A stretch of DNA of 64,000 bases from Patescibacteria group bacterium (GTDB lineage: Bacteria > Patescibacteriota > SICC01), in assembly GCA_040902515.1 (NCBI GenBank), contig JBBDXB010000006.1:574017-638016 (forward strand), in the 5' to 3' direction. Position 1 is the first letter of the stretch; every line of letters starts with the position of its first letter. The notes beneath the pieces are model-generated. The model was given only the letters and a program-made list of their open reading frames with translations. It searched no databases and had not been told where the DNA came from. Shown in pieces: positions 5,993 through 57,087 of the stretch. The translations under genes were made by a program, and so were the position numbers.

Positions 5993-7189
5993 TTACTGCC
6001 CGATATCGAGCTTCTTGCCGCCCCGGGCGGCCGCTTTGCCTTCGGATGAACCGGATGCCGCCTCGTCTTTCGCCGCGGCCTTGGGAAGGCTGAGGACGAA
6101 CGCATTGCCGGTATTGGTGCCGGTCACCGAGAACCGGGCGCGATGCGCCTCGATGATCTGCTGGGCGATGTAGTAGCCGATACCCTCCTCGAAGCCCTGC
6201 GCGCCGACGTAATCGAAGACGTTCTGCTGCTGGTCGCGGGCCAGCGGCGCTCCCTGGTTCTCGATCCGGAACTCGACTTCGGGATCCGTTTCCTGGAGGT
6301 TGAACGAGACCTCGCTCTTCGGAGCGGATGTCCGGGCGGCGGTGTTGGCGATCATCGAAAGCAGACGCCCCACTTCCGTGACATCCACCTCGATCTCCGC
6401 GTCCGTGCCCGGTTTGCCGGCATTCAGCGTTCGTGACGATTCGGCGACCGTCGTGGCGAGCTTGTCGGTGGCCTGCGTGAATAGCTCTTTCGCGGCGATC
6501 CGCTGCTTGCGTACGGCGATCTTCTCCTCGGAGAGGGTCTCGATCCGGGCCATGTCCTCGATGATCCGGAGCAGCTTGTTGGCGCTGTCCAGGATCGTCT
6601 GTACTTTGCTGAGCGCATCCTTGGGGAGCTTCCCGGCGTCTCCGGAAAGGAGCAGGTCGGCGTAGCCTTTCATGGCGGTGATCGGTGCCCGGAGCTCGAA
6701 CGAGGAGAGGTTCACGAGGCGCTTTCGGAGTTCCTTCTCCGCCTGTTCGGTCGTGGCGTCGACCAGGACCACCACGTGGTACCCGGGCGGATAGGTCAGG
6801 GAGCGTTTGGCGGCGTAGACCGGCGTCAGCGTACCGTCCTGCGCCGTGACCGTACCCTGGCGCTTGCGTTCGGTCAGCTTGAGCGGCTTGCCGCCACCGT
6901 CTATCGAAAGCACCGTCTCGAGCGGCTGATGGAACGACGAGCGGCCTTCCCGGCCGGTCATCGTCGCAAACGACTGGTTGGCATACTCGACGGTGCCCTC
7001 CGGGTCGACCAGGGCCACGCCCTCGTCGAGGTGCTGTCCGAACTCTTCCCAGAGCTTGAAGCGGTCGGCGGCTTCCTCGGTGGTCTGCTTGATCGCGTCC
7101 TGGGCGCCGGCCTGTCGGAACAGGGAACGGATCAGCAACACGAGGGTTACGAGGAACGCGGTGGCGAAGATGAACGTAAGCGTATCCAC
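5993..7189 (-). CDS. PAS-domain histidine-kinase-like protein with degenerate catalytic motifs (phospho-acceptor His replaced by Phe); GTG start
   Basis: N-terminal TM, PAS-like region (LVDPEGTVEYANQSFATMTGRE). HisKA-like block reads NLSSFELRAPITAMKGYADLL (F where the conserved H of SHELRxPLT sits). ATPase N/G boxes are degenerate (MIANTAARTS; IENQGAPLA). Converges on the kinase at 4517-5992 with zero gap. Confidence 0.6.
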   Translation of the reverse strand: MDTLTFIFATAFLVTLVLLIRSLFRQAGAQDAIKQTTEEAADRFKLWEEFGQHLDEGVALVDPEGTVEYANQSFATMTGREGRSSFHQPLETVLSIDGGGKPLKLTERKRQGTVTAQDGTLTPVYAAKRSLTYPPGYHVVVLVDATTEQAEKELRKRLVNLSSFELRAPITAMKGYADLLLSGDAGKLPKDALSKVQTILDSANKLLRIIEDMARIETLSEEKIAVRKQRIAAKELFTQATDKLATTVAESSRTLNAGKPGTDAEIEVDVTEVGRLLSMIANTAARTSAPKSEVSFNLQETDPEVEFRIENQGAPLARDQQQNVFDYVGAQGFEEGIGYYIAQQIIEAHRARFSVTGTNTGNAFVLSLPKAAAKDEAASGSSEGKAAARGGKKLDIGQ

Positions 7190-7282
7190 GCCGCCAGTCT
7201 ACAGGCCGCGGGCGCGCGCCACTAGTTCGGTGCGGACCCGCTGCTTTGCGGTCGGAGCCATGCGTCCGGCACAATGGAGTGG

Positions 7283-7366
7283 GCCGGGGTGGCGGAACTG
7301 GCATACGCGACGGACTCAAAATCCGTTGCCCGCAAGGGCTTGTGGGTTCGAATCCCACCCCCGGCA
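7283..7366 (+). tRNA. tRNA-Leu (anticodon CAA), class II with long variable arm
   Basis: Acceptor stem gccgggg/ccccggc, U8, anticodon loop cuCAAaa, variable-arm hairpin gccc-gcaa-gggc, T-loop gggttcgaatccc, discriminator A. Confidence 0.8.
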
Positions 7367-7406
7367 CCGTTTGCCGCCGGTCATCCGGCGTCGTAGGGTT
7401 AAATCG

Positions 7407-8216
7407 ATGGAGTCGCCAGAGGCCACGTACCAAGCACCCGCCCGTCCGCCCCGGCGCGATCCGGCCGACGTGCTGTGGCGGTTCGCGAAGGGTATCTTCC
7501 CGCTGGTACTGATCGGCGTAGCCGTGTACCTGGTCTTCAACTTTCCGGCGCTTTGGACGCGTCTGACGTTCATGGTCAGCAGCCCGGAGAGCGCTTCGGC
7601 GGCGACGTTGCCGGAAGTGGTGCGGACCGGAACCTTGCCGGGAGGTGGTGATGGTGCCGGTCAGGCCGGCGTGCCCTGCGAAGGGAACATCCCATACGAC
7701 GGCAGCGGTAACCCGCGCGCCATCTGCGACAACTACATTTATATTCCGCGTATCCGGGTAGCCGCACCGATCGTCCGTCCCGCATCCACGTCGGAAGCGG
7801 TGATCAACGACGCGCTCCTTCGCGGCGTGATCAAGTATCCCGGCACCGCCGACCCCGGCGAGAAGGGTAACCTGTTCCTGACCGGACACAGCTCTTACTA
7901 CTGGTGGGTGGATACCGACTATCGTAATGTCTTCGCCCTGGTTCCCGAGCTTCGCGTCGGTGACGAGATCGTGGTGTATCACCGGGGCAAACGGTATCTC
8001 TACCGCACCCACCGGACCTTCGAAGTCGCCCCCACCCACACCGACGTCCTGAAACCGACCCGTGAGTCGATGGTGACGCTCTCGACCTGCGTGCCGGTCG
8101 GTACGAGCTATCGGCGGATCATCATCCGAGCCCGGCAGATCAGCCCCGATCCGGCCACGAACGTGGCTCCCGGCGAATCAGCCGAAACGCCCGCCCGGCT
8201 GCCGGGTGTCCGCTAG
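7407..8216 (+). CDS. Sortase family transpeptidase (membrane-anchored)
   Basis: N-terminal TM (LVLIGVAVYLVFNF); catalytic His in LFLTGHSSYY; TLSTC Cys motif; conserved Arg in RRIIIRA. Candidate enzyme for the LPVTG substrate at 1224-2927. Confidence 0.8.
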   Translation: MESPEATYQAPARPPRRDPADVLWRFAKGIFPLVLIGVAVYLVFNFPALWTRLTFMVSSPESASAATLPEVVRTGTLPGGGDGAGQAGVPCEGNIPYDGSGNPRAICDNYIYIPRIRVAAPIVRPASTSEAVINDALLRGVIKYPGTADPGEKGNLFLTGHSSYYWWVDTDYRNVFALVPELRVGDEIVVYHRGKRYLYRTHRTFEVAPTHTDVLKPTRESMVTLSTCVPVGTSYRRIIIRARQISPDPATNVAPGESAETPARLPGVR

Positions 8217-8227
8217 GGAAAGAGTCG

Positions 8228-9499
8228 TCAGGAACCCCTGAGGTTGATCCGGACCAACCGTCCGCTCGCGCGATCGGTGACAATGATCGTATCCAGTCCG
8301 AGGATCGTCGGCTCACTGCCGATTCCGTCGGCCACCACCTGATCGTTGGTGCCGTCCCGGGCGATCACGTGAAGATCGCCGCCGCTGCGGTAGAGTAGAT
8401 GCGACCCGTCAGGGAGGGGATAAATCCGCTCCGGCGGATCGGTCAGGCGGGTAACCAGCCGATCCTTGCCGGATTCAAGGCTCAGCAGATGGAGTTCGCT
8501 CGTGGTGCGGTAGGCGAGATAATGCCCTTCATGGTCCGGTGCTGCTTGGACGAGCCCCTGTACGAGATTCCGATGGCGTTCGTCCCGGAGCAGACCGAAG
8601 GAGCCGTCACGGTCTTCAGCCACTACCGCATCCGGACCTATCGTCGTGAGGGCAGTCACTGTCCGGGTCTCCGGTATCCGCCGCCCCGTCCCGTCCGGCC
8701 GGATCCAAGTGACACCCAGTGCATCGAGGACATACAGCCCATTCTCCGCCGCGGCCCAGGCCCGCGGGGCCACGGCCACCGTCCTTGCGTCCGTGCCATC
8801 CGTATCCTGTACCCTGATCCGGTTGTTCCTGACGGTAAGTACGCGGCCGTCGACGAAGCGGCCGCTCGTCCCGGGCAGGTCTCCCACGCGCGACCCTTCG
8901 CGGTCGAATACGAAAGTGCGCTCGTTGCCGCTGAGCAGGATCCGGTTTCCGCTCCCGGTGACCGCCAGCGAGCGCGGTTCGGCCAGCGTGGCCGGCAGGG
9001 CCGTGATCGTACGGGACGTGCCGGCTTCCAGGTCGACGGACTCCAGCCGGTACCGTTCGTTATGTCGGGTGATCGCCACCGCGTGCCCGCCGCCGGCCGA
9101 GACCGCTACACGGCGGACGGTGCCTTCGGTAAGGAACGTCCGTTCCGGCGATTCCGGAAAGAGCGTGATGGATTCGATCACCGCTTCGCCGGGATCAATC
9201 CGGACCGTCTTCCGCCATGGCAGCCGATCGTCTTTCCGGACTTCCACATCGTACGTTCCCGGCCGGAGCGATATCCGTGCGTCCGTCCGTTTGCCGTGCG
9301 GCTCACCGTCGATCAGGATTTGCGCGGGATCCGGGTCCGACTGCAGGGCGAGCAATCCGCGCTCGTAGAGCGCGCCGGAATCAAAGTCGATGGCGTACCC
9401 CCGGGTGACCAGCAGTGCGACCGTCGCTCCCGTCAAGAACAAGACGAGCGTGAGTATGTAGACCGCGAATCGGGGCCGATAACGATGACGGGGAGACAT
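8228..9499 (-). CDS. Membrane-anchored hypothetical protein with PEGA-like domain and beta-propeller-like repeats
   Basis: N-terminal TM (FAVYILTLVLFLTGATVALLV); PEGA-like ILIDGEPHGKRTDARISLRPGTYDVEV; repeated G/D/R-rich beta-strand segments. Confidence 0.5.
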   Translation of the reverse strand: MSPRHRYRPRFAVYILTLVLFLTGATVALLVTRGYAIDFDSGALYERGLLALQSDPDPAQILIDGEPHGKRTDARISLRPGTYDVEVRKDDRLPWRKTVRIDPGEAVIESITLFPESPERTFLTEGTVRRVAVSAGGGHAVAITRHNERYRLESVDLEAGTSRTITALPATLAEPRSLAVTGSGNRILLSGNERTFVFDREGSRVGDLPGTSGRFVDGRVLTVRNNRIRVQDTDGTDARTVAVAPRAWAAAENGLYVLDALGVTWIRPDGTGRRIPETRTVTALTTIGPDAVVAEDRDGSFGLLRDERHRNLVQGLVQAAPDHEGHYLAYRTTSELHLLSLESGKDRLVTRLTDPPERIYPLPDGSHLLYRSGGDLHVIARDGTNDQVVADGIGSEPTILGLDTIIVTDRASGRLVRINLRGS

Positions 9500-33781: not shown

Positions 33782-35023
33782 ATGAGTGACCAACACCACA
33801 AAGCCAAGATCCGTAACGCCCAAGCGCGCCATCAGTCGCAGCTGTTCGGCGATGCCGCGCAGAAGCCGTCTTCCCAGGCGGCCGATACGCAGGCGCAGCA
33901 ACGTGCGGGCCACCTGACGGAAGCGGCCCGTGCTAAGGAACGGCGCCTCTCGCAAGCCGAAGAAGCGCGGTTGGCGGCACTGCGGAAACGTAACGAAGCG
34001 GCCCGGCGCAGCCATCAGACGCAGGTACCGTCGGGGCATGCTCCCGATGTGCCTGCCCAGGCGTCGCAGCCTCAATCGAAGCCGCAGGCACGCCCCGAAT
34101 CTCACGATACGCAGCCGTCTCAGCCGGCGATGCCCCGGCGCGCACCCGCTCATCCGTTACGTCAGGTAGCCGAACGGAGCGATATGGCCGCAGCGGCGCT
34201 TGAGAACATGGAGAAGCACTTGCGGGAGCAATCCCAGCAGCCCCCGGCGCCCCAACCGCCGCAGTCCCCACCGGCACCTGCTGAACCGCGGCCGCAACCA
34301 CAGCCACCGCGCCCGGCGCCGCCACAGCCACCGGAACCGGAACCGGAGCCAGAACAGCCTCCTCGGCCGCAACAACCGCCGCAACCGCAACCCCAGCCGG
34401 CCGCACCCCCGCCCCCCCAAGGCCGTGACCGGCCGGCCCCGTCCGGCCAGCCTCGCCCGGCCCGCCGGGCACCTAGTCCGGAGGAGCTCGACCGTCTGCT
34501 CCGGCAGATGGCAGCCCGCAGCCGCACCCGCCCCGGGGCCGGTGCGCAGCAGCCGCGCCCGCCGATGTCTCCGCGCGGCATGTCCGGCGCTCCCGAGGGG
34601 AATCCGGACGCTGCTCCCGTCGAAGCTCCGCCTCCGCCGCCCGAGCTGGTCGAGCAGGAAGCGCGACAGGTCGAGAAGTCCGCGGAAATCCTGAAAGAGC
34701 TCAAGGCCCGCGAAGTCCAGGCGCAGCAGGACATCACGCCGATTCCGCAGGCCGACCAGACCCGGGCCCGGGAAGAAGCCGTCGAGGCGAACCTCCCGAT
34801 CCGTACCCAGGCGAACTCGATCGCCTCGGGGCCGCTCCATGACGCGATCGAGCAGCTTCAGGTGGCGATGCGCGCCCATGACCCGGTCGGACAAGTCCAT
34901 GGGGCGAACTCCGTCCAGCGTCAGATGCCGCACCATCCGCTCTATGATCCCGAGGCTGCCAAACCGGACGCCGCGCCGTCGGACACGCCGCCGGGTGATG
35001 CACCGCAGGAGGGGAAGCAATGA
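33782..35023 (+). CDS. Pro/Gln-rich intrinsically disordered protein (413 aa), translationally coupled to the downstream VirD4-like ATPase
   Basis: Low-complexity PQPPQPQPQPAAPPPP tracts, no TM or signal peptide; stop overlaps the next start (ATGA at 35020). Confidence 0.6.
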   Translation: MSDQHHKAKIRNAQARHQSQLFGDAAQKPSSQAADTQAQQRAGHLTEAARAKERRLSQAEEARLAALRKRNEAARRSHQTQVPSGHAPDVPAQASQPQSKPQARPESHDTQPSQPAMPRRAPAHPLRQVAERSDMAAAALENMEKHLREQSQQPPAPQPPQSPPAPAEPRPQPQPPRPAPPQPPEPEPEPEQPPRPQQPPQPQPQPAAPPPPQGRDRPAPSGQPRPARRAPSPEELDRLLRQMAARSRTRPGAGAQQPRPPMSPRGMSGAPEGNPDAAPVEAPPPPPELVEQEARQVEKSAEILKELKAREVQAQQDITPIPQADQTRAREEAVEANLPIRTQANSIASGPLHDAIEQLQVAMRAHDPVGQVHGANSVQRQMPHHPLYDPEAAKPDAAPSDTPPGDAPQEGKQ

Positions 35024-37437
35024 ACCCCAACTTGCCGGCGCGTGCCCAGCGCATGCTCGACCAGCTCTCCAAGGGCGACAAGAAGGTCGTCAAGAAGCTG
35101 GAGCGGGTACTGCTGGAGGTCCGGGTGCCGCGGCACCGGCCGAAGGAAGGTGAGCGGCAGCAGGAACTCAAGGAGCAGCTCGGCGTGGCGGAGCAGCTCT
35201 TCGCCTCGCTCCATTCGATCTACCGCGGCGGCATGACTTCCCAGCTCTTCGAACAAGACGCGATCAGTTTCGAGGTCGCCGCGCCGGGCGGCGAGATCGG
35301 CTTCTTCGTAGGCGTGCCGCTGCATCTCCAGAGCCTGGTGGAGAAGCAGATTCACGCCTACTATCCGGACGCCGAGATCACCCCGGTGCCGCTCTACAAC
35401 ATATTCGCGCGGCAGGGCTTCGTGGCGGCGACCTCACTGGCGCAGCGGAAGCAAGCCCGCTATCCGATCAAGACCTATCAGGACTTCGAAGCCGACCCGA
35501 TGGCCGGCATCGTGGGATCGCTCGCCAAGCTCGGTCCCGACGAAGGCGCGGCAATCCAGATCATGATCGCTCCGACCGGTCACCGCTGGCGGAAACAAGC
35601 GCAGTCCTACGCCCGGCAGTACGCCCAGGGGAAGTCGGGTACCGGCGGCTCGGCCTCGGGCAAGGTCTTCGGCGGCATCTTCAAGTTCGGCGGCGACCTG
35701 CTCTCCGCGGCGACGACTGATCCCAAGCAGGATGCCCAGAAGCCGGCGCAGGGCTCCGACGAACCGCGGAAGCTGACCCAAATCGAGGAGCAGATGGTCG
35801 AGAAGATCGAGACCAAGGCCGGCTCGCCGGGCTTCGAGGTGGTGATCCGGATCGTTTCCGCCGCCGCCGACAAGGGTGTCGCGGAACTCAACCTCCAGCA
35901 CCTTACCCGGTCGTTCCAGCAGTACGACGCGCCCGACCTCAACGGGTTCAAGGAGATCGTCTCGCCGGTGGCCTCGCAGGCGCGGTTGGTCACCCGGTAC
36001 GTCTTCCGTGAGCTTTCCGGAGCGGGGAAGAAGATGATCCTCGGTCCGGCGGAGCTGGCCTCGATCTGGCACCCGCCGAGCGAGGGCATCGAGACGCCGC
36101 ACGTCCGCTGGCTCGGTGCCAAGACCGCCGCGCCGCCGAGCAACATGCCGCGCGACGGCCTGCTGCTCGGCTACAACCAGTACCGTGGCCAGGCCACCGA
36201 CGTCCGTCTCAAGGAAGACGACCGCCGCCGTCACATGTACGCCGTCGGTAAGACGGGCATGGGTAAGTCGGTGTTCCTCGAGAACATGATCCTGCAGGAC
36301 ATCCGTGCCGGCCGGGGCGTGGCGGTGATCGACCCGCACGGCGACCTCGCCGAGAAGGTCCTCAGCAAGGTTCCGCGCGAGCGGGCCGAGGACGTGGTCT
36401 ACTTCGACCCCGGCGACGCGGAACGGCCGATGGCCTTCAACATGCTCGACTATGCCACGCCGGAGCAGAAGGACTTCGTGGTACAGGAGACCGTGGGCAT
36501 CTTCTACAAGCTCTTCGGCGAAGAGATGATCGGGCCGAAGTTCGAGCACTGGACGCGGAACGGCATCCTGACCCTGATGGAGGACAAGGAGACCGGCGCG
36601 GTGCTCTTCGACCTGCCGCGGCTCTTCTCCGAGCGCGAGTTCGCCGCCCAGAAGATCGCCAAGGTGAAGGATCCGGTCGTGAAGTCCTTCTGGCAGCGTG
36701 AGATGGCCCAGACCTCCGACTTCCATAAGTCGGAGATGCTCGGCTACTTCATCTCCAAGTTCGGCCGGTTCATCACCAACGAGATGATGCGGAACATCAT
36801 CGGCCAACCGAAGTCCGCGTTCGACATCCGGCAGGTGATGGACGAGGGCAAGATCCTGATCATGAACCTCGGCAAGGGCCGGGTCGGCGAGATCAACTCA
36901 TCGCTGCTCGGCATGATCGCGGTCAGTAAGATCCAGATGGCGGCGATGAGCCGGGTGGACACGCCGGAGCACAAGCGGAAGGATTTCTACCTCTACGTCG
37001 ACGAGTTCCAGAACCTCACCAACGAGGAGTCGATCCAGTCGATCCTCTCCGAGGCGCGGAAGTACCGCCTGAACCTGACGATCGCCCACCAGTACATCGC
37101 CCAGCTCGACGAAAAGGTCCGCGACGCGGTGTTCGGGAACGTCGGGACGGCGGTGAGCTTCCGGGTCGGCGCGGACGATGCCGAGTACCTCGAGAAGCAG
37201 TTCGAGCCGGTGTTCGACGCCCACGACCTCCTGAACCTCGACAAAGCCAACTGCTACGCCAAGCTGGTGATCGACGGGCTCTCCACCCGGGCGTTCAACA
37301 TGAAGACCTACTCGCCGGAGCCGGTGACGCAGGAGGATGCCGAGATCGGCGAGGCGATCCGGAAGCTCTCGCGGCTCAAGTATGGACGCGACAAACAGCT
37401 GGTCGATTACGAGATCCGGATGCGGAGCAACCTGTGA
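35020..37437 (+). CDS. VirD4/TraG/TraD-like type IV secretion coupling-protein-type ATPase (805 aa) with N-terminal domain of unknown function
   Basis: Walker A VGKTGMGKSVFLENMIL, VIDPHGDL, Walker B/TraM-recognition-like FYLYVDEFQNL, C-terminal arginine-finger-like region. No VirB-type partners nearby. Confidence 0.65.
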   Translation: MNPNLPARAQRMLDQLSKGDKKVVKKLERVLLEVRVPRHRPKEGERQQELKEQLGVAEQLFASLHSIYRGGMTSQLFEQDAISFEVAAPGGEIGFFVGVPLHLQSLVEKQIHAYYPDAEITPVPLYNIFARQGFVAATSLAQRKQARYPIKTYQDFEADPMAGIVGSLAKLGPDEGAAIQIMIAPTGHRWRKQAQSYARQYAQGKSGTGGSASGKVFGGIFKFGGDLLSAATTDPKQDAQKPAQGSDEPRKLTQIEEQMVEKIETKAGSPGFEVVIRIVSAAADKGVAELNLQHLTRSFQQYDAPDLNGFKEIVSPVASQARLVTRYVFRELSGAGKKMILGPAELASIWHPPSEGIETPHVRWLGAKTAAPPSNMPRDGLLLGYNQYRGQATDVRLKEDDRRRHMYAVGKTGMGKSVFLENMILQDIRAGRGVAVIDPHGDLAEKVLSKVPRERAEDVVYFDPGDAERPMAFNMLDYATPEQKDFVVQETVGIFYKLFGEEMIGPKFEHWTRNGILTLMEDKETGAVLFDLPRLFSEREFAAQKIAKVKDPVVKSFWQREMAQTSDFHKSEMLGYFISKFGRFITNEMMRNIIGQPKSAFDIRQVMDEGKILIMNLGKGRVGEINSSLLGMIAVSKIQMAAMSRVDTPEHKRKDFYLYVDEFQNLTNEESIQSILSEARKYRLNLTIAHQYIAQLDEKVRDAVFGNVGTAVSFRVGADDAEYLEKQFEPVFDAHDLLNLDKANCYAKLVIDGLSTRAFNMKTYSPEPVTQEDAEIGEAIRKLSRLKYGRDKQLVDYEIRMRSNL

Positions 37438-37513
37438 CCGTCGCGCCCGAAGGACCGTTTATGGTGAGTATACCCGCATGACACGTACACGCCTAGGGGC
37501 TATAATACGGCGT

Positions 37514-37942
37514 ATGACTGACGTAAGAGATATGTACAAGTTCGTCCAGTACGTTGACTCGGACGAATACAATCCTGACCCAAAACAGTTCAAGGAACCG
37601 CACGAAGCTGAGCAATACTGTGCAAAGCACTACGCAGAGAAGTTGGGGATTACGCAGTACGAAGCTACGAAAATTCTTAACAATGCCACGATCGAGAGTC
37701 GCCAGTATGCAAAGGTAATCGGCGATGATCCGCGAGGGTACAAGCTGGAGATAACTGTTGGTCCTGGCAGAACTGGCGTTCACCTTATATCAAAGACGTT
37801 TGGAATTCCGTTAGGTTTGTGGGACGAAATCCAAAAAGAATACGACACTACTACGAGAACGATTGTGAGTCTTGTTGTGGGATTACTAGGCGGCGGCAGC
37901 TTCGCTACACTCGTCATCTTTGCTTTCTCGATATTCAACTAG
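37514..37942 (+). CDS. Hypothetical small protein with C-terminal TM helix, encoded in a lower-GC island
   Basis: ORF MTDVRDMYKFVQYVDSDEYNPDP...; C-terminal IVSLVVGLLGGGSFATLVIFAFSIF; TATAAT box 8 nt upstream of ATG (possible leaderless transcript); GC content clearly below the flanks. Confidence 0.5.
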   Translation: MTDVRDMYKFVQYVDSDEYNPDPKQFKEPHEAEQYCAKHYAEKLGITQYEATKILNNATIESRQYAKVIGDDPRGYKLEITVGPGRTGVHLISKTFGIPLGLWDEIQKEYDTTTRTIVSLVVGLLGGGSFATLVIFAFSIFN

Positions 37943-37945
37943 CGA

Positions 37946-38485
37946 ATGCCTAGCTCGGTTGGTACGATAACTCCGCTAATGCCTAAGAAGAAGCCAGCCA
38001 CAGAAAAAGAGAAGACTATCATCGGGGCGGTTATCCTTGTGGTGATCTTCGTAGTAGGTACAACGGCCTGCACAGGAGTAAGCAACGATGAAAGCGATAC
38101 GAACGACACGGCAAACAATCAGACCAGTGAACCTACTAAAGAACCCCAGAAAAACGAAGAGTCTTTAGTCGATAAGGTCGAGGCAGCATTGGATAAATTG
38201 GGCGAAGGTATGAAACGCGAGCTGGCTTCAACGAGTCCTGACGGCTATCAAGGCGACATAACCAGCGTTGAACCAGCCATAGGCGATGATACCGTTAAGG
38301 TTAATGTATCGACTCGCTTTGAGGACTCAGGCGATGGAATTGATGGTGGGCAAGGCATAGCTCGCAGGATATTCAGCAATATCTGTCTTGATGTTCCAGA
38401 GCTTGGAAGTCTGTATGTAGTAAGCGGCTCTGGATTGGAAAGTAAGTCCGTATATCGCAGTCAAATACCTGGCTGTAAGCAGTAG
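37946..38485 (+). CDS. Putative lipoprotein or secreted protein (179 aa) in the lower-GC island
   Basis: N-terminal hydrophobic segment IIGAVILVVIFVVGTTAC followed by Cys (lipobox-like), acidic/Thr-rich linker. Confidence 0.5.
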   Translation: MPSSVGTITPLMPKKKPATEKEKTIIGAVILVVIFVVGTTACTGVSNDESDTNDTANNQTSEPTKEPQKNEESLVDKVEAALDKLGEGMKRELASTSPDGYQGDITSVEPAIGDDTVKVNVSTRFEDSGDGIDGGQGIARRIFSNICLDVPELGSLYVVSGSGLESKSVYRSQIPGCKQ

Positions 38486-38528
38486 TATATGAGTGTGGCA
38501 GAAAAAGAATCCAACTTCGACAAGCTGA

Positions 38529-39374
38529 TTAAACTCGCTTCGCAGCCCGTTCAATCAGGACGGGGTAAACCAGCACGTTCCGGAGGTTATAGCGGAAAAC
38601 GAACTCGTCCACGTAAGTCTGCAGGTACTTCGGGGAAACGGCGTGGTACGTCCCGTTAATCGACCGCTTTAGCTGGCTCCAAAATCCCTCAATCGAGTTC
38701 GTGTGGATATTCCCTCGGACGTATTCCTTTTCCACGTGCTTGATGATTTTCCGAGATACGGTGGTGCGCCGGTAAATCGCGCTTTCGTCCGTGTGGAGTT
38801 CCGCGTCGTCTGACACGCTGGCCTTGATGAACGGCGTGGCGTTCGTGACGTTCGCCTCGGCGACCCACGCCTTTGCCTTGCCCTTTCGTTCGGTAGCACC
38901 GATCACCGCCGTCTTGTTCGTCCACTTGTTAGCTTGTCCTTTAATCCGTCCGCCGATAAAGGTTTCATCGGCTTCAACGATACCGTCCAGCTTGTCGGCG
39001 TTCTGTTCCATGAGAAGCCTGACTTGTTTGGCGATCCGCCATGCGGTCTTGTATGTGCAACCTAGCTGGCGTTCCAGTTCCTTAGCCGATACCCCGTTCT
39101 TTGAAGTCGAGAACAGGTAGATAGCGTAGAACCAGTTTTTTAGTGGCGTGGCTGACTTGTGGAAAATAGTACCGGCCAACGGGTGCAGCTGATGACCGCA
39201 GTGCATACAGGAATACGCCTTACGCCCTTTCAGCTTGAAGAACTTGGTATCCACGACCCCGCAGCCAGGGCAGGACTTTAATGCCCCGTAGCGGTTCTGA
39301 AACACCTCGTCCAAGCACGCCTCATCTGAGGGATACTGCTTGTTGAAGTCGGCAATGGTGAATCGCTGTTTCAT
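38529..39374 (-). CDS. IS1595-family transposase (N-terminal zinc-ribbon + DDE domain)
   Basis: CPGCGVVDTKFFKLKGRKAYSCMHCGHQ zinc ribbon; WYAIYLF...GVSAKELERQLGCTYKTAWR HTH; DDE region IVEADETFIGG...HTDESAIY...SIEGFWSQLKR characteristic of ISXO2/IS1595 transposases. Confidence 0.85.
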   Translation of the reverse strand: MKQRFTIADFNKQYPSDEACLDEVFQNRYGALKSCPGCGVVDTKFFKLKGRKAYSCMHCGHQLHPLAGTIFHKSATPLKNWFYAIYLFSTSKNGVSAKELERQLGCTYKTAWRIAKQVRLLMEQNADKLDGIVEADETFIGGRIKGQANKWTNKTAVIGATERKGKAKAWVAEANVTNATPFIKASVSDDAELHTDESAIYRRTTVSRKIIKHVEKEYVRGNIHTNSIEGFWSQLKRSINGTYHAVSPKYLQTYVDEFVFRYNLRNVLVYPVLIERAAKRV

Positions 39375-50730: not shown

Positions 50731-50804
50731 TCGGGGATCGTCTAATGGTAGGACGCCAGGTTTTGGTCCTGGAAATCGGGGTTCGAATCCCTGTCCCCGA
50801 GCCA
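50731..50804 (+). tRNA. tRNA-Gln (anticodon TTG) with encoded CCA
   Basis: Acceptor stem tcgggga/tccccga (U1-A72), anticodon stem ccagg/cctgg with loop uuUUGgu, T-loop ggttcgaatcc, discriminator G then CCA. Confidence 0.8.
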
Positions 50805-50821
50805 TGCATACCGAACGCGCC

Positions 50822-51301
50822 ATGCCCGAGAAGAAACTCATCGTAGTCTCGTTCTTCGAGGACCTGGAGCCGGGGTACCGGTTTCCGGCCGGTGACTGGC
50901 CGGTACATCTGACGTTGCTCCTCCCGTTCGGCATCGAAGAAACATCGGTCAGTGACCTCGAAGCGAGGCTCGCGGATGTCTTCGCGCGGCAGGATCCGGT
51001 CGAAGTCGTATGCGAAGAAGCGGTCCAGTTCGGCCCGCAAGGGAATACCCCCGTTACCACCGTCCGTCGCAGCGCCGAGCTGCAGTCCCTCCACGATGCG
51101 TTGCTGGAGCTCATCGACGAACGTGGCGCCTCGTATGATCCGCGATGGTCGGGCGGGGAATACCGTCCCCACGTGACCCGTCAAGCCCGCGGCGCGATGG
51201 AGCCGGGAGAATCCGCGGAACTGCGCTCAGCTTCTTTGCTTGATTACGAGGAGACTACACGGACCATTCGGCGGACGTACCCGTTCGGTGCGGGTTCCTG
51301 A
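50822..51301 (+). CDS. 2H phosphoesterase superfamily protein (LigT / 2'-5' RNA ligase-like)
   Basis: Two H-x-T-x motifs (PVHLTLL and RPHVTRQ) at the expected spacing; starts 18 nt after the tRNA-Gln CCA. Confidence 0.6.
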   Translation: MPEKKLIVVSFFEDLEPGYRFPAGDWPVHLTLLLPFGIEETSVSDLEARLADVFARQDPVEVVCEEAVQFGPQGNTPVTTVRRSAELQSLHDALLELIDERGASYDPRWSGGEYRPHVTRQARGAMEPGESAELRSASLLDYEETTRTIRRTYPFGAGS

Positions 51302-51497: not shown

Positions 51498-52145
51498 ATG
51501 GCTAGGAAGGACCCGTCAGATATCGTGAGCGGAGCGGGGATGCTGACCAGCATCTTCACCAAGCTCGACAAGGCCGTGACCGCGGCCGGAGGCAGGCCCA
51601 AGGACATCCACCGGCTTGCCACCGACGAGGGTGACGCGCTGCTCACGCAGTTCGCCGAGCTGCTCGTGGTCAAGCAGGCCGGGGACAAGTACGTGATCAC
51701 CGTCAACTACGGCGAGCAGCTCAAGACGCTGATCGTCGACGGCGGTTACAACTGGGTCAACGACTACTACGAGGGCCAGACCTGGGACGACTGGAAACAG
51801 CAGGACGGAGTGACCCCTGTAATGTTCCCGTCCTGTCGCACGGTCGAGACTGAGGCCGTCGTCGTCCATCTCGACCGCTACGCCGAGACCGGCGAGGTGC
51901 TGGTGGAGCTCGACTTTCGGGGTCTCCGGCCCGCCGACGTAGCGGAGCTCTTGAGCTTCGGAGTCGCACACCCTGAGGTCCAGCGCGAGTTCCGGATCAT
52001 CGAGCTCGGCTCGATCTTGGGGGACCCGTATGGCAGCCGCTACGTGGCGTCTCTGTGGAGCGACTCCGGCCGGCGCTACCTCGACCTCTACTGGTACGAC
52101 GACCGGTGGGCTCCGGGCTGCCGGTTCCTCGCCTTCGGCAAGTAG
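51498..52145 (+). CDS. Hypothetical protein, paralog 1 (215 aa) of the protein at 60145-60804
   Basis: Shared features with paralog 2: MAR(K/R)...GAAG...AV..GG N-terminus, VTV(N/D)Y, GLRPA(D/N)(V/M)AEL, aromatic-rich C-terminus. Confidence 0.6.
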   Translation: MARKDPSDIVSGAGMLTSIFTKLDKAVTAAGGRPKDIHRLATDEGDALLTQFAELLVVKQAGDKYVITVNYGEQLKTLIVDGGYNWVNDYYEGQTWDDWKQQDGVTPVMFPSCRTVETEAVVVHLDRYAETGEVLVELDFRGLRPADVAELLSFGVAHPEVQREFRIIELGSILGDPYGSRYVASLWSDSGRRYLDLYWYDDRWAPGCRFLAFGK

Positions 52146-53009: not shown

Positions 53010-53028
53010 GTTCACGTCGGCGCCAAGC

Positions 53029-53057
53029 TCTAAAAACTTGATAATCATGCCATTTTG
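53029..53057 (+). promoter_or_regulatory. AT-rich near-consensus promoter TTGATA-N17-TATATT (extended TGg) upstream of the monooxygenase-like gene
   Basis: ttgata 53029-53034, 17-nt spacer, tatatt 53052-53057, in a ~60-bp AT-rich stretch that stands out from the GC-rich flanks. Confidence 0.55.
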
Positions 53058-53090
53058 TGGTATATTTACTGAATTTAGTAAAACCAAAAA

Positions 53091-55190
53091 ATGGCAGAAC
53101 AAGCCGAAAACAGGAGCCAGGTTGAACATTCCGTTGACCTGGACAAGGAGCGGGAAGCGCAGAAGAACGTCGCGGAACGCTTGCGCTCTGACCACTCCCT
53201 GCAGGCGATGCTTAGTTGGGTGCGCCATACACCGGAAGTGTTTTCCGAGGTGTATGACTTCGTTTCCCGTAAAGAGGAACTTCTAGAAGGGAGCACCCTC
53301 GAGGGCCAGAAGCATCGTGAGTACACCCCCGTGCTCGCGGGTGTCATGAACTCCGAGCGGGGGAGCGAGGTGATGGACATGGCCATAGACCGGTCGGTCG
53401 AGGAGCAAACGGCCGAGATCAAGGAACGGCTCAGGACGGGGGATTGCTATGTCCGGGAATTGGTAGTCGGAAGCGGTCCTCATGCCCAGATCTACAATGC
53501 CGAAAAGGCGGTCGCCAACCCGGGTCACGCCGGGTTGACCGTAGAGCGGGACCGACGGATCGGCGGGCAGTTCGCACTGGCCGAGTCGCCGGTATGGCAT
53601 CTCAACACCCGCACCCGCCCGGAAGACGCACTGTCCGCGCATTTGCCCGGAACTGAAGGCAGCTTGAATACGTTAGGCCGGGGTGCCGTGCAGCAATCGG
53701 ATTTGACCGGTGAGGCATACGGGAGCCAGGACCGTCTGGCTGATGCCGTTCGTATCAATCACGCGTTGGTCAGCCGGGTCATGAACCGGACCGAGGTAAC
53801 GGCAATCCGGGATGGAATGGAGGACTTGCCCGGCAAAATGCAGGTCGAGATGCGGGATACCCAAACGGGGGAAATCTTCTTTATCCAGACCGACCGGGTC
53901 GTGCTGACGACCGGCTTAGGGGAGTCGCGTACGGGGTTGGAACAGGCGGACCGGGCCAGCCAGGACCTGGTAGCCCGGAACATGGAGGAGTTCGAAAAGA
54001 CGGGCAAGGCGAAGATCATGTTGCTCGAACAGGCCGTGCAGATGCTTGGTGACAAGCATAACCCGTTCCCCCTGCGCGACATGGGGGAAGTTGGCGTTAT
54101 CGGCCCTGGCGACTCGGGTGCGATCGTAGCGGAGTACCTGCTCGGCTATGGCCCCAAGCCCCGCAAGTCGGTGGCCGCCCTGGACAGGGTCAAAAGCGTC
54201 CGCTGGGTGGGCCAAAAAAGCGAAACCCGCGAAGACTTCGACGTACGGCAACGGTATAAGATGCTCGGACTCGAGATGCCGCGCAAGCACGCTCCTGACT
54301 ATGCGACACGAATTGAACCGGCCGAGGGCCGGTGCTTCAAGATCGAAGAAGAGGGTGACAAGCTCCGGATGCATTACCGGAACAAAGCTGGTGAGCAGTC
54401 CAGTTGTGTCGTCGACCATATCATTCTGGCTACCGGATACGTGGATAAGACCGATGAGATTATGCAGGTGGGGTCGGCTCGAAAGAAAGAGGAAGAGACT
54501 GTCTTTGCCGAGACTGGCCTGCCGGTGGCCCAGCGGTATGCGGGGACGGAGGTCTATAAAGCCGGGCCGAGTTCACAGATGGAGCTCTCGGAGCAGAACC
54601 GGAACGGCTCTCCGGCCATGCAGCGGATGGATGTCCGCAAAACGGTCGCGGTATGGGCGTTCGCGGAGGAAACGGAGTCCTTGGCTCGTCTGCTTGCCCG
54701 GAAAGACATCGAAGAGGGAAATCCGGAAGATATTTTGACCGAGCTGAAGTCGCCTGATCCCGTACCGATGCCAGAATTGCAGCCGACCGAAAAGGCGTCC
54801 CCGCTGTTCGTGCCGATACAGGAGATGCCCTCTCGCGACCGTCTTCCGGCGGGGGTTAACGGTGAAGACGTGCTGAGATTCACGGCCGGCGAATACTTGG
54901 CAAAGTATTCGTTCCCCGAATCTACCAAGGGATTCCGGTTGTCGGTTGAGCGGGCCAAGAACGGTGCCCCGCAGTTCAGGGTGGATATCACACCGGGTTC
55001 GGCGTGCGAACAGGAGGAGTACTGTCAGATGCTTCGCGACCTGATGGGTGACCGGGTTATGCAAGATATGCTCCAGCGTTTGACGGAGAAACGGGTCAGC
55101 CGGCAGCAGCGGGTAGACATCGATATCCCGATGAAGGACGGCCATGTAGTGCCGGAGAGCATCGAATACCACATTCCTCGGTCGCACTGA
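53091..55190 (+). CDS. Large (699 aa) FAD/NAD(P)H-dependent flavoprotein monooxygenase-like protein (N-hydroxylating/FMO class B-like) with N- and C-terminal extensions
   Basis: Two Rossmann dinucleotide motifs (VVGSGPHA and IGPGDSGA) and downstream D-x3-ILATGY, at the spacing seen in ornithine/lysine N-monooxygenases; ~120-aa N-terminal and ~200-aa C-terminal extensions of unknown function. Confidence 0.45.
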   Translation: MAEQAENRSQVEHSVDLDKEREAQKNVAERLRSDHSLQAMLSWVRHTPEVFSEVYDFVSRKEELLEGSTLEGQKHREYTPVLAGVMNSERGSEVMDMAIDRSVEEQTAEIKERLRTGDCYVRELVVGSGPHAQIYNAEKAVANPGHAGLTVERDRRIGGQFALAESPVWHLNTRTRPEDALSAHLPGTEGSLNTLGRGAVQQSDLTGEAYGSQDRLADAVRINHALVSRVMNRTEVTAIRDGMEDLPGKMQVEMRDTQTGEIFFIQTDRVVLTTGLGESRTGLEQADRASQDLVARNMEEFEKTGKAKIMLLEQAVQMLGDKHNPFPLRDMGEVGVIGPGDSGAIVAEYLLGYGPKPRKSVAALDRVKSVRWVGQKSETREDFDVRQRYKMLGLEMPRKHAPDYATRIEPAEGRCFKIEEEGDKLRMHYRNKAGEQSSCVVDHIILATGYVDKTDEIMQVGSARKKEEETVFAETGLPVAQRYAGTEVYKAGPSSQMELSEQNRNGSPAMQRMDVRKTVAVWAFAEETESLARLLARKDIEEGNPEDILTELKSPDPVPMPELQPTEKASPLFVPIQEMPSRDRLPAGVNGEDVLRFTAGEYLAKYSFPESTKGFRLSVERAKNGAPQFRVDITPGSACEQEEYCQMLRDLMGDRVMQDMLQRLTEKRVSRQQRVDIDIPMKDGHVVPESIEYHIPRSH

Positions 55191-55251
55191 GCGGCTCTTC
55201 GGCACCGGTTAACGAAGGCGCCACCTTGCTTCCGCGCCAAACGCGGGTTTT

Positions 55252-57087
55252 TTGCGTAGACTAGAGCTTATGCGCCAGCCGCACGACATCCGGAACATCG
55301 CGATCATCGCTCACGTGGACCACGGCAAGACCACGCTGGTCGATGGTTTACTCAAGCAGTCCAAGACGTTCCGCGACAACCAGGCTGAGATGGACGCCAG
55401 CCTGATCCTCGATACCGGCGATTTGGAGCGTGAGCGCGGCATCACCATTTCTGCCAAGACGGCGGCGGTGGAGTACGAGGGAACCAAGATCAACATCATC
55501 GACACGCCCGGTCACGCCGACTTCTCCGGCGAGGTGGAGCGGACGCTCGGGATGGCGGACGGTGTGATCCTGGTGGTGGACGCCCAGGAGGGGCCGATGC
55601 CGCAGACCACGTTCGTGCTAAAGAAGGCGCTCGCGCTCGGCCTGAAGCCGATCGTCGTGCTCAACAAGGTGGACAAGCCCAACGCCCGGACCGAGAAAGC
55701 CAAGGACGAGGTGGAGCACCTCTTCCTGGACCTAGCCGTCTCGGACGACCAGCTCGACTTCCCGACGTATTACGCGGTCGCGCGGGAGGGGAAGGTTTGG
55801 AGCGAGCCGCCGGCCAGTCCGGACGACCCGGCAGATCTCCAGCCGATCTTCAAGGCGATCCTGGAGCATGTACCCGCGCCGCCGGGCGATCCGGACGGGC
55901 CGTTCCAGATGCAGGTATCCGCGCTGGCGTGGGATTCGTTCCAGGGCACGTACGCGATCGGGCGGATCCAGCGGGGGAGCGTGCAGAAGAACGATCCGGT
56001 GGCGCGGATCGCTACGGACGGCAGCGTCACGCCGGCCAAGGCGGCGAAGATCTTCATCTCCAAAGGACTCGGCCGGACGGAAGAGGCAGCGGCCGGAACC
56101 GGCGAAATTGTGCAGCTTACCGGTATCGAGGGCGTGATGATCGGCGAGACGATCACCAGTCCCGACCGGCCCGACCCGCTTCCGGCGATGGAGATCGAAG
56201 CGCCGACCCTGAAGATCGCGATCGGTCCCAACACCTCGCCGTTCTCCGGCAAAGAGGGGAAGTTCTCGACGTCGCGGCAGATCGGGGCGCGCCTCGAGAA
56301 GGAACTGGAGACCAACGTGGCGCTGCGGGTCGAGGAGCAGGGAGCCTCGTTCATGGTGTCCGGCCGCGGCGAGCTTCACCTTTCGATCCTGATCGAGACG
56401 CTGCGGCGCGAAGGATTCGAGCTGGAGGTCAGCCGGCCGCAGGTCGTCACCAGGGAGGAAGACGGAAAGGTGCTGGAACCGGTAGAGGACGTGATCATCG
56501 AGGTGCCGGAGGAATACACCGGCGCGGTCACCACGGAGCTGGGCCGGCGGAAAGCGCAGCTCCAGGAGATGCAGCCGACCGCCAAGGGGGTCACCCGGTT
56601 CACGTACAAGCTCTCCACGAACGCCCTGCTCGGGCTGCGCAACGCCCTGCTGACCGCCACCAAGGGGACCGTGGTGATGAACAGCCTGTTGGCCGGGTAC
56701 GAACCGCAGAAGCCGCCGCTGGAGAAGCTCCGTAACGGCGTGCTGATCTCCGCCCAGACCGGCACCGCCGTCACCTATGGCCTGCTGGTGGTCGAGGAGC
56801 GGGGGACCGCCTTCATCGGTCCCGGTACCAAGGTGTACGAGGGGATGATCATCGGTCTGAACCGCCGGAGCGACGACATGGAGATCAACGCCTGTAAGGA
56901 GAAGAAGCTGACCAACGTGCGGGCCAGCGGGACGGACATGACCACCCAGCTGACGCCGTATACCGAGCTCAGCTTGGAGGAAGCGCTCGACTTCATCGAG
57001 ACCGACGAGCTGCTGGAGGTGACGCCCCAGTCGCTACGCATGCGGAAGCGCCATCTGACGGAACTCGACCGGCGGCGGAACCGATAG
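55252..57087 (+). CDS. typA: Translational GTPase TypA/BipA (alternative start 55270)
   Basis: AIIAHVDHGKTTLVD G1, DTPGHADF, NKVDK; domains II-V of EF-G-like architecture and BipA-specific C-terminal domain. Confidence 0.9.
   Translation: MRRLELMRQPHDIRNIAIIAHVDHGKTTLVDGLLKQSKTFRDNQAEMDASLILDTGDLERERGITISAKTAAVEYEGTKINIIDTPGHADFSGEVERTLGMADGVILVVDAQEGPMPQTTFVLKKALALGLKPIVVLNKVDKPNARTEKAKDEVEHLFLDLAVSDDQLDFPTYYAVAREGKVWSEPPASPDDPADLQPIFKAILEHVPAPPGDPDGPFQMQVSALAWDSFQGTYAIGRIQRGSVQKNDPVARIATDGSVTPAKAAKIFISKGLGRTEEAAAGTGEIVQLTGIEGVMIGETITSPDRPDPLPAMEIEAPTLKIAIGPNTSPFSGKEGKFSTSRQIGARLEKELETNVALRVEEQGASFMVSGRGELHLSILIETLRREGFELEVSRPQVVTREEDGKVLEPVEDVIIEVPEEYTGAVTTELGRRKAQLQEMQPTAKGVTRFTYKLSTNALLGLRNALLTATKGTVVMNSLLAGYEPQKPPLEKLRNGVLISAQTGTAVTYGLLVVEERGTAFIGPGTKVYEGMIIGLNRRSDDMEINACKEKKLTNVRASGTDMTTQLTPYTELSLEEALDFIETDELLEVTPQSLRMRKRHLTELDRRRNR

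Follow-up and report, generated by a model that had tools for sequence, protein, structure and literature searches.

A candidate class-B-like flavoenzyme family of Patescibacteria and soil viral contigs

Does a flavoprotein gene that stands among housekeeping genes of a Patescibacteria genome encode an amine N-hydroxylase, as short motifs in its product had suggested, or a flavoenzyme of another kind? The question was raised by a 64,000-nucleotide stretch of DNA, analysed as a whole and referred to here as the window, in which the original prediction had placed a 699-aa protein with FAD- and NAD(P)H-binding motifs of the SidA/IucD/PvdA or FMO type, flanked by large extensions and unaccompanied by biosynthetic genes.

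The gene and its surroundings

The open reading frame is confirmed as a real gene and carries all three of the motifs quoted for it. Purifying selection acts on it, as seen from a dN/dS of 0.10 against the orthologue in locus L001, and its GC3 is 0.73 compared to 0.83-0.90 in the neighbouring genes. It lies between ygjP and typA as a monocistronic unit, with its own promoter and terminator:

53091..55190, + strand: coding sequence of the 699-aa flavoprotein (ORF; NCBI: hypothetical protein WD603_00035, Patescibacteria group bacterium)
53038..53066, + strand: sigma70-like promoter, -35 TTGATA, 17-nt spacer with TG extension, -10 TATATT
55231..55257, + strand: intrinsic-terminator-like hairpin of 6 pairs (5 G-C) followed by TTTTTT, 41 nt past the stop codon

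The promoter scores 10/12 and lies, as predicted, in an AT-rich island, which measures 104 bp (53017-53120). Nine further sites of equal quality in the window make it typical of this genome. The neighbours comprise ligT, an ORF lacking a Pfam match (51498-52145), ygjP, typA and dnaJ; the other genes sampled in the window are housekeeping, in agreement with the view that it holds no biosynthetic genes.

Domain architecture and conserved residues

The AF2 model (pLDDT 95.3, pTM 0.94; an earlier AlphaFold run on 4 sequences, with pLDDT 52, was discarded) establishes the FAD-binding fold that had been anticipated, and the flanking extensions resolve into two domains of their own. The chain is divided as follows:

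53139..53438, + strand: N-terminal all-helical domain, residues 17-116 (AF2 helices; no Pfam match)
53439..54080, + strand: FAD-binding Rossmann domain, first part, residues 117-330 (motifs, AF2 model)
53577..53726, + strand: family-specific 50-residue loop, residues 163-212 (no regular secondary structure in AF2, pLDDT ~95-97)
54081..54440, + strand: NAD(P)H-binding Rossmann domain, residues 331-450 (motifs, AF2 model, alignment to MbtG/NbtG/SMFMO)
54441..54725, + strand: FAD-binding domain, second part, residues 451-545 (V-Y-K-A-G492-P493; long helix 521-542 in AF2)
54726..55187, + strand: C-terminal alpha/beta domain, residues 546-699 (AF2 model; no Pfam match)

Residue conservation was counted in an alignment of 145 divergent sequences and motif strings in 262 relatives. 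The first Rossmann domain shows a GxGxxA motif (G127-S-G-P-H-A132) in which G127 and G129 are glycine in every ungapped row, an acidic residue ending beta2 (E152; E/D in 133/145), a G158-G159-Q-F motif (GG in 140/145) and the ATG motif L-T-T-G275-L-G (G275 in 144/145). Position 131 is His in 111/145 sequences and next most often Gln or Asn, and Cys is absent among its listed top residues. The loop 163-212 holds the family's most conserved residues, L-N172-T-R174-T-R176-P, L-P186-G187, N193, D204 and Y210 (N172 in 141 of the 145 sequences, R174 in 135, R176 in 138, N193 in 132, D204 in 119 and Y210 in 134), and the string LN[ST]R.RP recurs in 181/262 relatives. In the NAD(P)H domain the motifs are G338-P-G-D341-S-G343, W372-x-G374 and R386-x-R388-Y389, and the domain ends with D442-HII-L-A-T-G449-Y; G338, D341 and G343 are nearly invariant (D341 in 142/145), and counts elsewhere are similarly high (R386 and Y389 144 each; R388, D442 and G449 138 each).

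The helices of the N-terminal domain (17-33, 35-46, 48-58, 61-65, 79-86 and 89-115) are modelled at pLDDT >95, and beyond about residue 40 the domain is conserved family-wide, phage forms included; column occupancy in the family alignment is 0.77-0.99 from residue 31. The C-terminal domain (strands 572-575, 614-621, 628-634, 674-682 and 692-694; helices 591-603, 642-652 and 655-664; pLDDT ~89-97) is confined to the long, cellular clade, its column occupancy of ~0.5 coming from long sequences only.

With a pair of Rossmann-type dinucleotide-binding domains in a single chain, the protein belongs with the tDBDF superfamily, in which the motif order is DBM-FAD, ATG, DBM-NAD(P), GxxP and GD (PMC1924876). 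The first three follow in the right order (G127 to A132, T273-T-G275, G338 to G343) and are nearly invariant in the 145 relatives. Where GxxP is expected, the query has G449-Y-V-D452 and the family G(Y/F)xD, with Pro at 452 in just 17/145; where GD is expected stands G492-P493, with G492 in 142/145 and Pro at 493 in 130/145. Given that these positions are kept while their letters differ, the family is understood as a variant within the superfamily.

Relation to known flavoenzymes and proposed chemistry

That the motifs serve FAD and NAD(P)H binding is thus upheld by fold and conservation, and the relation to amine N-hydroxylases is upheld as a distant one; what fails is the assignment to the SidA/IucD/PvdA or FMO type. 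Foldseek matches the model to SidA, DiatB, DfoA, SsDesB, KtzI and PvdA at E ~1e-12, and comparison with BFVD returns generic flavoprotein folds only. Remote homology is likewise evident when the family HMM is run against PDB sequences: N-hydroxylases come out on top (MbtG 1.2e-9, NbtG 3.4e-7, SMFMO 4.6e-7, KtzI 1.3e-5, PvdA 1.8e-5), followed by TrxR (5.7e-5) and FNR (6.2e-5), with every sequence E-value modest and all solved relatives at or below ~18% identity. In hhalign, the family profile aligned over 25 columns with E. coli IucD (sequence 100% identity-verified in plasmids) and over 38 columns with TrxB, both being single-sequence templates without profile depth.

The best sequence-profile matches, MbtG (PDB 9nns) and NbtG (PDB 4d7e), are actinobacterial L-lysine N6-monooxygenases of class B2, the N-hydroxylating class to which SidA, PvdA, KtzI and IucD also belong. 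MbtG and NbtG share with the family the two-Rossmann FAD/NAD(P)H fold, a first motif GxGPxx, a second motif GxGxS(G/A) and the absence of the FMO-identifying motif, and they align in register from the ATG motif to the second GxGxxG and again over the FATGY region. SMFMO, the small type II FMO of Stenotrophomonas maltophilia (PDB 4a9w/4c5o), is 14% identical and, with 357 aa, devoid of the flanking domains; to our knowledge, the LN(S/T)RxRP, RxRY and GP motifs have not been reported as SMFMO features. The best solved relatives of the family are mycobacterial and nocardial lysine N-hydroxylases. Other class B fingerprints are missing: the FMO-identifying motif of class B3, FxGxxxHxxx(Y/F)(K/R) (PMC10682829, PMC13557801), is absent from the query and all 262 relatives, and both fingerprints of the class B1 BVMOs, GGxWxxxx(F/Y)P(G/M)xxxD and FxGxxxHxxxW(P/D) (PMC10682829), occur in 0/262.

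Based on this evidence, we favour, at roughly even odds, a reading in which the protein is a soluble class-B-like tDBDF flavoenzyme using NAD(P)H and O2 for heteroatom oxygenation, and the family is distantly sister to class B flavoprotein monooxygenases, with MbtG, NbtG and SMFMO as its nearest relatives there. The enzyme would be cytoplasmic and transcribed alone, with one Rossmann domain binding FAD and the other NAD(P)H. To proceed, the reaction would require reduction of FAD by NAD(P)H, formation of a C4a-hydroperoxyflavin from reduced flavin and O2, and oxygenation by that species of a nucleophilic heteroatom (amine N, possibly S) of the substrate. NADPH would be favoured as reductant: at the beta2 end of the second Rossmann domain, W372-V-G-Q lacks an acidic residue and is followed by the conserved T379, R386 and R388, a pattern that fits NADPH by textbook rules. 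The loop 163-212 is probably the substrate and active-site loop, and N172, R174, R176, D204 and Y210 within it, together with R386, R388 and Y389, probably hold the substrate; judging by the charges of these residues, the ligand may be anionic or zwitterionic. Packed onto this core are two family-specific additions, the helical domain at the N-terminus and the alpha/beta domain at the C-terminus. Counted against the proposal are the low identity to solved relatives, the minimal NAD(P)H domain (~120 aa), which appears to lack the insertion from which N-hydroxylases build their amino-acid cleft (PMC10682829), the altered GxxP and GD motifs, the missing FMO motif and the lack of a pathway neighbour. 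Many Patescibacteria are, moreover, described as fermentative anaerobes, a lifestyle that would disfavour an O2-dependent enzyme.

The alternative that survives best, possible yet less probable than oxygenation, is a TrxR-like flavoprotein that uses NAD(P)H for reduction or electron transfer (a TrxR-type ferredoxin/flavodoxin-NADP+ reductase, a YpdA/Bdr-like protein or an NAD(P)H oxidase), its electrons going to an acceptor that is either a protein or a small molecule. Such proteins, among them Bdr/YpdA (PDB 7a76), 3d1c and the TrxR-type FNRs (3ab1, 6gar), differ from the family, which has no conserved cysteine and possesses the extra domains. The query's five cysteines (119, 415, 439, 639 and 645) are not conserved, CxxC occurs in 1/262 relatives, and apart from A/C at position 447 the alignment has no conserved Cys column, which argues against disulfide-reductase chemistry. 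The prevalent His131 speaks in the same sense, occupying the place, by motif position and not by alignment, that we take to be that of Bdr Cys14 in the first GxGPCG motif. TrxR-like flavoproteins also receive weaker sequence-profile support than the N-hydroxylases and SMFMO, which outrank them; Pyr_redox_2 scores 18.4 bits on the query, below its cut-off of 26.1; and the loci compared show no conserved ferredoxin, flavodoxin or thioredoxin partner beside the gene. Oxygenase as opposed to reductase chemistry is what we infer, and the same holds for the preference for NADPH, the location of the substrate site and the kind of substrate.

Far less probable is a genuine SidA/IucD/PvdA N-hydroxylase making a hydroxamate siderophore or antibiotic precursor. 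The GxGxxA, GxGxSG and DHIILATGY strings are all present, MbtG and NbtG are the top PDB sequence matches, and the whole-protein score for PF13434, the Pfam model of these enzymes, is 24.8 bits against a cut-off of 21.3. The Pfam match nonetheless fails on inspection: its best stretch covers 49 residues, query 227-275 on profile positions 291-336 of 339, out of register, an offset that puts the first ATG motif of the query opposite the FATGY end of the profile. The model touches only 4/42 long and 13/30 short relatives, all weakly. N-hydroxylating monooxygenases carry GXGXX(N/A) and DXXXFATGYXXXXP (PMC9005580); in the family, D...[FL]ATGY is found in 6/262 relatives and the full form (DxxxF/LATGYxxxxP) in 2/262, the query itself (D442-HII-L-ATGY) has D instead of P/H at position 14 of the signature, and only D442, G449 and an aromatic at 450 are conserved across the family. 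Nor does the context of a monocistronic gene between ygjP and typA suit such a role: scanned genes of the window and of loci L004, L026 and L029 include neither an NRPS nor an NIS synthetase, and neither an acyltransferase nor a siderophore transporter, and siderophore or natural-product genes are likewise missing from the homologue contexts L004, L026, L029 and L039 and the phage loci. Hydroxamate siderophore synthesis is also not expected in a genome of such reduced type. The protein is not a SidA/IucD/PvdA family member, and the interpretation given in the original prediction is supported in part. A weak Pfam label can mislead here, as a precomputed PF13434 tag would imply a siderophore hydroxylase that the evidence does not support.

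Least probable of all, a catalytically dead or structural derivative such as a scaffold or binding protein would accommodate the changes from GD to GP and GxxP to GxxD, the large non-catalytic additions and the fast-evolving paralogues, but 145 divergent sequences show hardly any variation in the two dinucleotide motifs, in the acidic residue for the FAD ribose or in the GG motif, and the gene is under strong constraint by its dN/dS.

Family distribution and possible biological role

An exhaustive HMMER scan gave 779 representatives at E<=1e-3, hence a family of ~780 clusters at 50% identity; it was needed because word-index searches with the query alone and with an 83-sequence alignment under-reported the family, finding only 4 and 6 proteins. 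The family is marked by GGxF, LN(S/T)RxRP, RxRY and GP in place of GD, and no member looked up or listed bears an informative source name. Its matches to Pfam and NCBIfam are weak, partial or sub-threshold; judged by profile comparison, it is a distinct group for which neither collection has a model giving an in-register or significant match. A role in a defence system was considered and dropped, as NCBIfam offered nothing usable (none for the query) and PADLOC had no match for the query.

Long forms lie on cellular contigs, the taxonomically labelled ones being Patescibacteria, and short forms on contigs of soil viruses that bear mycobacteriophage-like traces; the paralogues are fast-evolving, nearly all of them singleton clusters. 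Recent horizontal transfer between the phage and cellular clades was rejected, the clades being reciprocally separate in an NJ tree. No match was returned by tblastn against cultured phages (query and short relative P0160) or plasmids (query and relative P0094), and literature searches found nothing relevant on such a flavin monooxygenase in Saccharibacteria or phages. The cellular loci compared have no conserved gene neighbour, and in nine phage loci nothing is conserved beyond the gene itself, although a few of them share a Clp_N protein and a TROVE/Ro60 protein.

The occurrence in ultra-small Patescibacteria chromosomes on the one hand and in soil phages on the other, with the gene always self-contained and free of pathway partners, suggests a role at the host-cell interface and not in housekeeping metabolism. 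Cultivated Saccharimonadia/Patescibacteria members are obligate epibionts of Actinobacteria. A broader and rather unlikely scenario would see an unrecognised class-B-like flavoenzyme subclass circulating among Actinobacteria and their parasites, the short form as a stand-alone accessory gene of actinophage-like soil viruses and the long form in Saccharimonadia/Patescibacteria, each modifying a host-derived metabolite (e.g., lysine, ornithine, a diamine, a cell-wall precursor or a low-molecular-weight thiol) to the parasite's benefit.

The family has importance as a sizeable group of flavoenzymes, with putative active-site motifs and extra domains of its own, that Pfam and NCBIfam models do not capture. 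If the enzyme activates oxygen, this would have implications for the extent of aerobic metabolism in these bacteria with reduced genomes. Flavoenzymology would gain a new branch near the class B monooxygenases, and biocatalysis a new scaffold. Its members extend beyond the long and short forms: five very long relatives (1396-2676 aa) have no informative Pfam domains, and a medium form is found in a cellular genome, adjoining WhiB.

The flavoprotein gene and its surroundings

The 699-aa open reading frame and the three motifs on which the original prediction of an NMO/FMO-type monooxygenase was built are present in the window, as is the AT-rich island with its promoter. The promoter had been called conspicuous, but a scan of the 64-kb window counted ten sites that score this well, along with nine AT-rich islands; it is not exceptional for the window.

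Features in and around the flavoprotein gene (window coordinates)
35020-37437: VirD4/TraG-like type IV coupling protein, adjoining the transposase
38529-39374, minus strand: IS1595-family transposase in a low-GC patch (0.51-0.57 at 37-40 kb)
50731-50804: tRNA-Gln, directly abutting the next ORF
50804-51301: LigT-like 2'-5' RNA ligase ORF
53017-53120: AT-rich island, 104 bp, upstream of the gene
53038-53066: promoter TTGATA-N17-TATATT with TG extension, score 10/12, inside the island
53091..55190, plus strand: flavoprotein ORF, 699 aa, ATG start
55231-55257: G+C-rich hairpin then T6, 41 nt past the stop codon

With the promoter upstream and the hairpin-T6 element downstream, the gene looks like a self-contained transcription unit. 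Comparison to the 78%-identical orthologue on contig L001 gives dN = 0.158, dS = 1.57 and dN/dS = 0.10; the gene is under constraint. It is real, selected and monocistronic. Its product, of which an identical copy is present in NCBI on a 638-kb contig, is acidic (pI 5.3) and hydrophilic, and the protein has no membrane-like segment.

The neighbours are housekeeping genes: dnaX, dnaB, recR, corA, cysS, tRNA-Gln and the LigT-like gene upstream, together with an ORF lacking a Pfam match and a ygjP-like gene, and typA/bipA downstream, with a DnaJ-domain gene on the opposite strand. Ten more large ORFs elsewhere in the window are all ordinary (SdrD/SpaA-domain protein, histidine kinase, ATP synthase beta, MurA, GltX, Mfd, TopA, class A PBP, the VirD4-like coupling protein and the IS1595 transposase). 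Neither the neighbours nor these ten ORFs include an NRPS, an NIS synthetase or a tailoring enzyme. The stretch 35020-39374 could be what is left of a mobile or conjugative element. The tRNA-Gln/LigT-like stretch recurs on L001 (214-992), where DUF5684 and PASTA protein genes intervene before the flavoprotein, so synteny is only loose.

Base composition sets the gene apart from adjoining genes (GC3 0.73 vs 0.83-0.90; gene GC 0.597 vs 0.63-0.685). The orthologue (L001 2534-4666) is richer than its flanks (0.677 vs 0.639), as is the homologue on the Saccharimonadia chromosome (L004 7911-10019; 0.497 vs 0.454), and the direction of the anomaly is inconsistent among the three copies. The start of typA, called mechanically as a TTG (55252), overlaps the upstream terminator's T-run; a likelier start is the ATG at 55270 (MRQPHDIRNIAIIAHVDHGKTT), in the same frame.

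Predicted fold and sequence placement

AlphaFold gave a pLDDT of 52 with four sequences, and 95.3 with a pTM of 0.94 once 83 family sequences were supplied. Model and Foldseek search give a two-Rossmann flavoprotein with an FAD domain. As modelled, the fold is certain, and it leaves the subclass unfixed.

Domains and motifs of the protein (residues; domain limits from the AlphaFold model)
17-115: N-terminal helical domain
120-151: beta-alpha-beta with G127-x-G-x-x-A, then E152
125-132: VVGSGPHA, first motif
158-161: GGQF motif
163-212: ordered 50-residue loop without secondary structure
up to T273-T-G275: beta-meander closing in the ATG motif
331-450: second Rossmann domain, G338-P-G-D-S-G to D442...A-T-G-Y450
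337-344: IGPGDSGA, second motif
442-450: DHIILATGY, third motif
451-545: return to the FAD domain, with V-Y-K-A-G492-P493 and helix 521-542
546-699: C-terminal alpha/beta domain

The protein belongs to the two dinucleotide binding domains flavoproteins (tDBDF), its FAD and NAD(P)H motifs intact. Structure matches, all at 12-18% identity, are led by Bdr/YpdA (7a76, score 22.9) and TrxR (3cty, 22.4), followed by a putative flavin monooxygenase (3d1c, 21.5), SMFMO (4a9w, 21.0), SidA (4b63, 17.5), NbtG (4d7e, 17.3) and SsDesB (6xbb, 17.0). Foldseek placed a TrxR-type FNR first (2.3e-13), with SidA, DiatB, DfoA, SsDesB, KtzI and PvdA next at ~1e-12. The best BFVD matches, A0A0D3MT87 (8e-11) and E0YIZ6 (4e-10) of Lactococcus phages WRP3 and 949, are named 'ribonucleotide diphosphate reductase alpha subunit'; given their match to a two-Rossmann flavoprotein model, these names look wrong or mean a reductase partner.

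Among PDB sequences, a family profile built from 145 sequences, with similar ranking from a 30-sequence profile, retrieved MbtG (E 1.2e-9), NbtG (3.4e-7), SMFMO (4.6e-7), KtzI (1.3e-5), PvdA (1.8e-5), TrxR (5.7e-5) and FNR (6.2e-5); L-amino-acid oxidases fell in the same range via the FAD motif only. The MbtG, NbtG and SMFMO alignments are in register at the ATG motif, the second GxGxxG and the FATGY region, so that the proposed kinship with N-hydroxylases and FMOs is right at the superfamily level. Remote homology is closest to N-hydroxylases and SMFMO. The Pfam model PF13434 (Lys_Orn_oxgnase) also scored above its cut-off (24.8 vs 21.3 bits), but its best stretch lays residues 227-275 on profile positions 291-336 of 339, and because the first ATG motif of the protein (DRVVLTTGLG) thereby falls on the FATGY end, the match is out of register. 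The precomputed PF13434 label is this 49-residue match, and it could lead automated annotation to miscall the protein as a lysine/ornithine N-monooxygenase. Pyr_redox_2 scored below its Pfam threshold, and nothing usable came from NCBIfam, PADLOC or a single-protein PDB sequence search.

Motif definitions from the literature (PMC10682829, PMC13557801, PMC9005580) were applied to 262 family members. None has the FMO-identifying FxGxxxHxxx(Y/F) or either of the two BVMO fingerprints, and just one has CxxC. The D...[FL]ATGY signature noted originally is present in the protein but rare in its family (6/262, the protein itself counted), whereas GG.[FW] (249/262) and LN[ST]R.RP (181/262) are common. 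Column counts among 145 family sequences are 111 for H131, 133 for E/D152, 141 for N172, 135 for R174, 138 for R176, 119 for D204, 134 for Y210, 144 for G275, 142 for D341, 144 for R386, 138 for R388, 144 for Y389, 138 each for D442 and G449, 142 for G492 and 130 for P493. The tDBDF superfamily has a defined motif order (PMC1924876), which the family keeps while having G(Y/F)xD for GxxP and GP for GD.

The family and its distribution

A word-index search turned up four relatives and no more. Running HMMER exhaustively over 1.84 billion cluster representatives raised the number to 779 at E<=1e-3, of which 600 reach E<=1e-10 and 283 reach E<=1e-30. In many of them the match spans roughly residues 25 to 705, and what had been described as large N- and C-terminal extensions are therefore present as conserved family parts, not mere extensions. 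All ten representatives looked up are singletons or near-singletons, unnamed or "hypothetical protein"; among the 120 short relatives listed one is labelled CzcO and the others are nameless or "hypothetical protein". In Pfam scans, 72 members matched nothing beyond Pyr_redox_2, PF13434 and NAD_binding_8/9, all weakly, and NCBIfam matches were weak and scattered. The family is large and unmodelled in both libraries, and it has a conserved loop and flanking domains of its own. While the fold and general chemistry are already known, the family is new, no model, informative name or characterised member having been found; new also are its architecture, its variant motifs and the way its occurrence is divided between Patescibacteria and soil phages.

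A neighbour-joining tree (431 core columns) separates long (>700 aa), medium (~600-700 aa) and short (~415-520 aa) clades. The long clade occupies cellular contigs, including the present window, the complete 1.19-Mb Candidatus Saccharimonadia chromosome OY970327.1, a Candidatus Saccharibacteria MAG contig (L005) and metagenome contigs that also hold CTP synthase, ABC transporters, histidine kinase, DsbA, ThrRS or MiaA; in two IMG/VR scans with long-clade alignments, viral contigs yielded no gene of the long type. A convergent serpin gene follows each of the long relatives P0153 (1556 aa) and P0154 (1228 aa) (L006 4978-6099, L007 3943-5040).

Short-clade genes lay, in three of three look-ups, on 50-135-kb contigs with dense arrays of small unannotated ORFs, accompanied by HNH, Ku, Clp_N, TROVE/Ro60, PDDEXK and AAA genes, and in loci from two of the three stood on the strand opposite to their neighbours. 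Nine IMG/VR viral genomes carry the gene; viral contigs with short relatives of about 415-580 aa (metagenome and IMG/VR loci L008-L014, L015-L023) come from soil and rhizosphere, most at 63-72% GC, and in them the gene often opposes all its neighbours in strand, like a moron. In L008 an adjoining 695-aa ORF is distantly portal-like. Several traces point to mycobacteriophages. Where these contigs match cultured phages, it is only those of Mycobacterium or Mycolicibacterium, through one tRNA-Ser-like stretch, one small gene and a Myrna-like AAA ATPase (L011; 31-34% identity to phages Myrna, ScoobyDoobyDoo and Phabba). At the DNA level L018 (115/115 records) and L019 (17/17) match no other cultured phages, over stretches of 86-156 bp and in a collection itself rich in mycobacteriophages; as pointers to the host these short matches are a lead, not proof. 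The one medium-clade contig examined (L038, 223 kb) is cellular; genes for WhiB, DivIC, Dus and an ABC transporter lie close by. WhiB-family regulators are typical of Actinobacteria and their phages; here one (3754-4158) lies ~3 kb from P0155 (659 aa; 7001-8980). Among the loci examined, no clade has a consistently adjacent gene.

Readings of function

We give even odds to an oxygenase, in which FAD would be reduced by NAD(P)H, the reduced flavin would activate O2, and a nucleophilic heteroatom of the substrate would be oxygenated. This reading draws on class B flavoprotein monooxygenases as best sequence relatives, on the lack of a redox cysteine and on the lack of a conserved adjoining electron-acceptor partner. 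A preference for NADPH is suggested by the lack of an acidic residue ending beta2 of the second domain and by conserved T379, R386 and R388; the loop 163-212 with R386, R388 and Y389 is a candidate substrate site. A reductase is possible, if rather unlikely, its weight coming from top structural similarity to minimal TrxR-like enzymes and a minimal NAD(P)H domain. A true siderophore N-hydroxylase appears improbable, and a dead enzyme more improbable still.

An enzyme serving a parasite by working on metabolites of an actinobacterial host is doubtful, the evidence being circumstantial; several observations are in line with it, among them the mycobacteriophage traces, Saccharimonadia carriage, the WhiB neighbour and the affinity to MbtG/NbtG.
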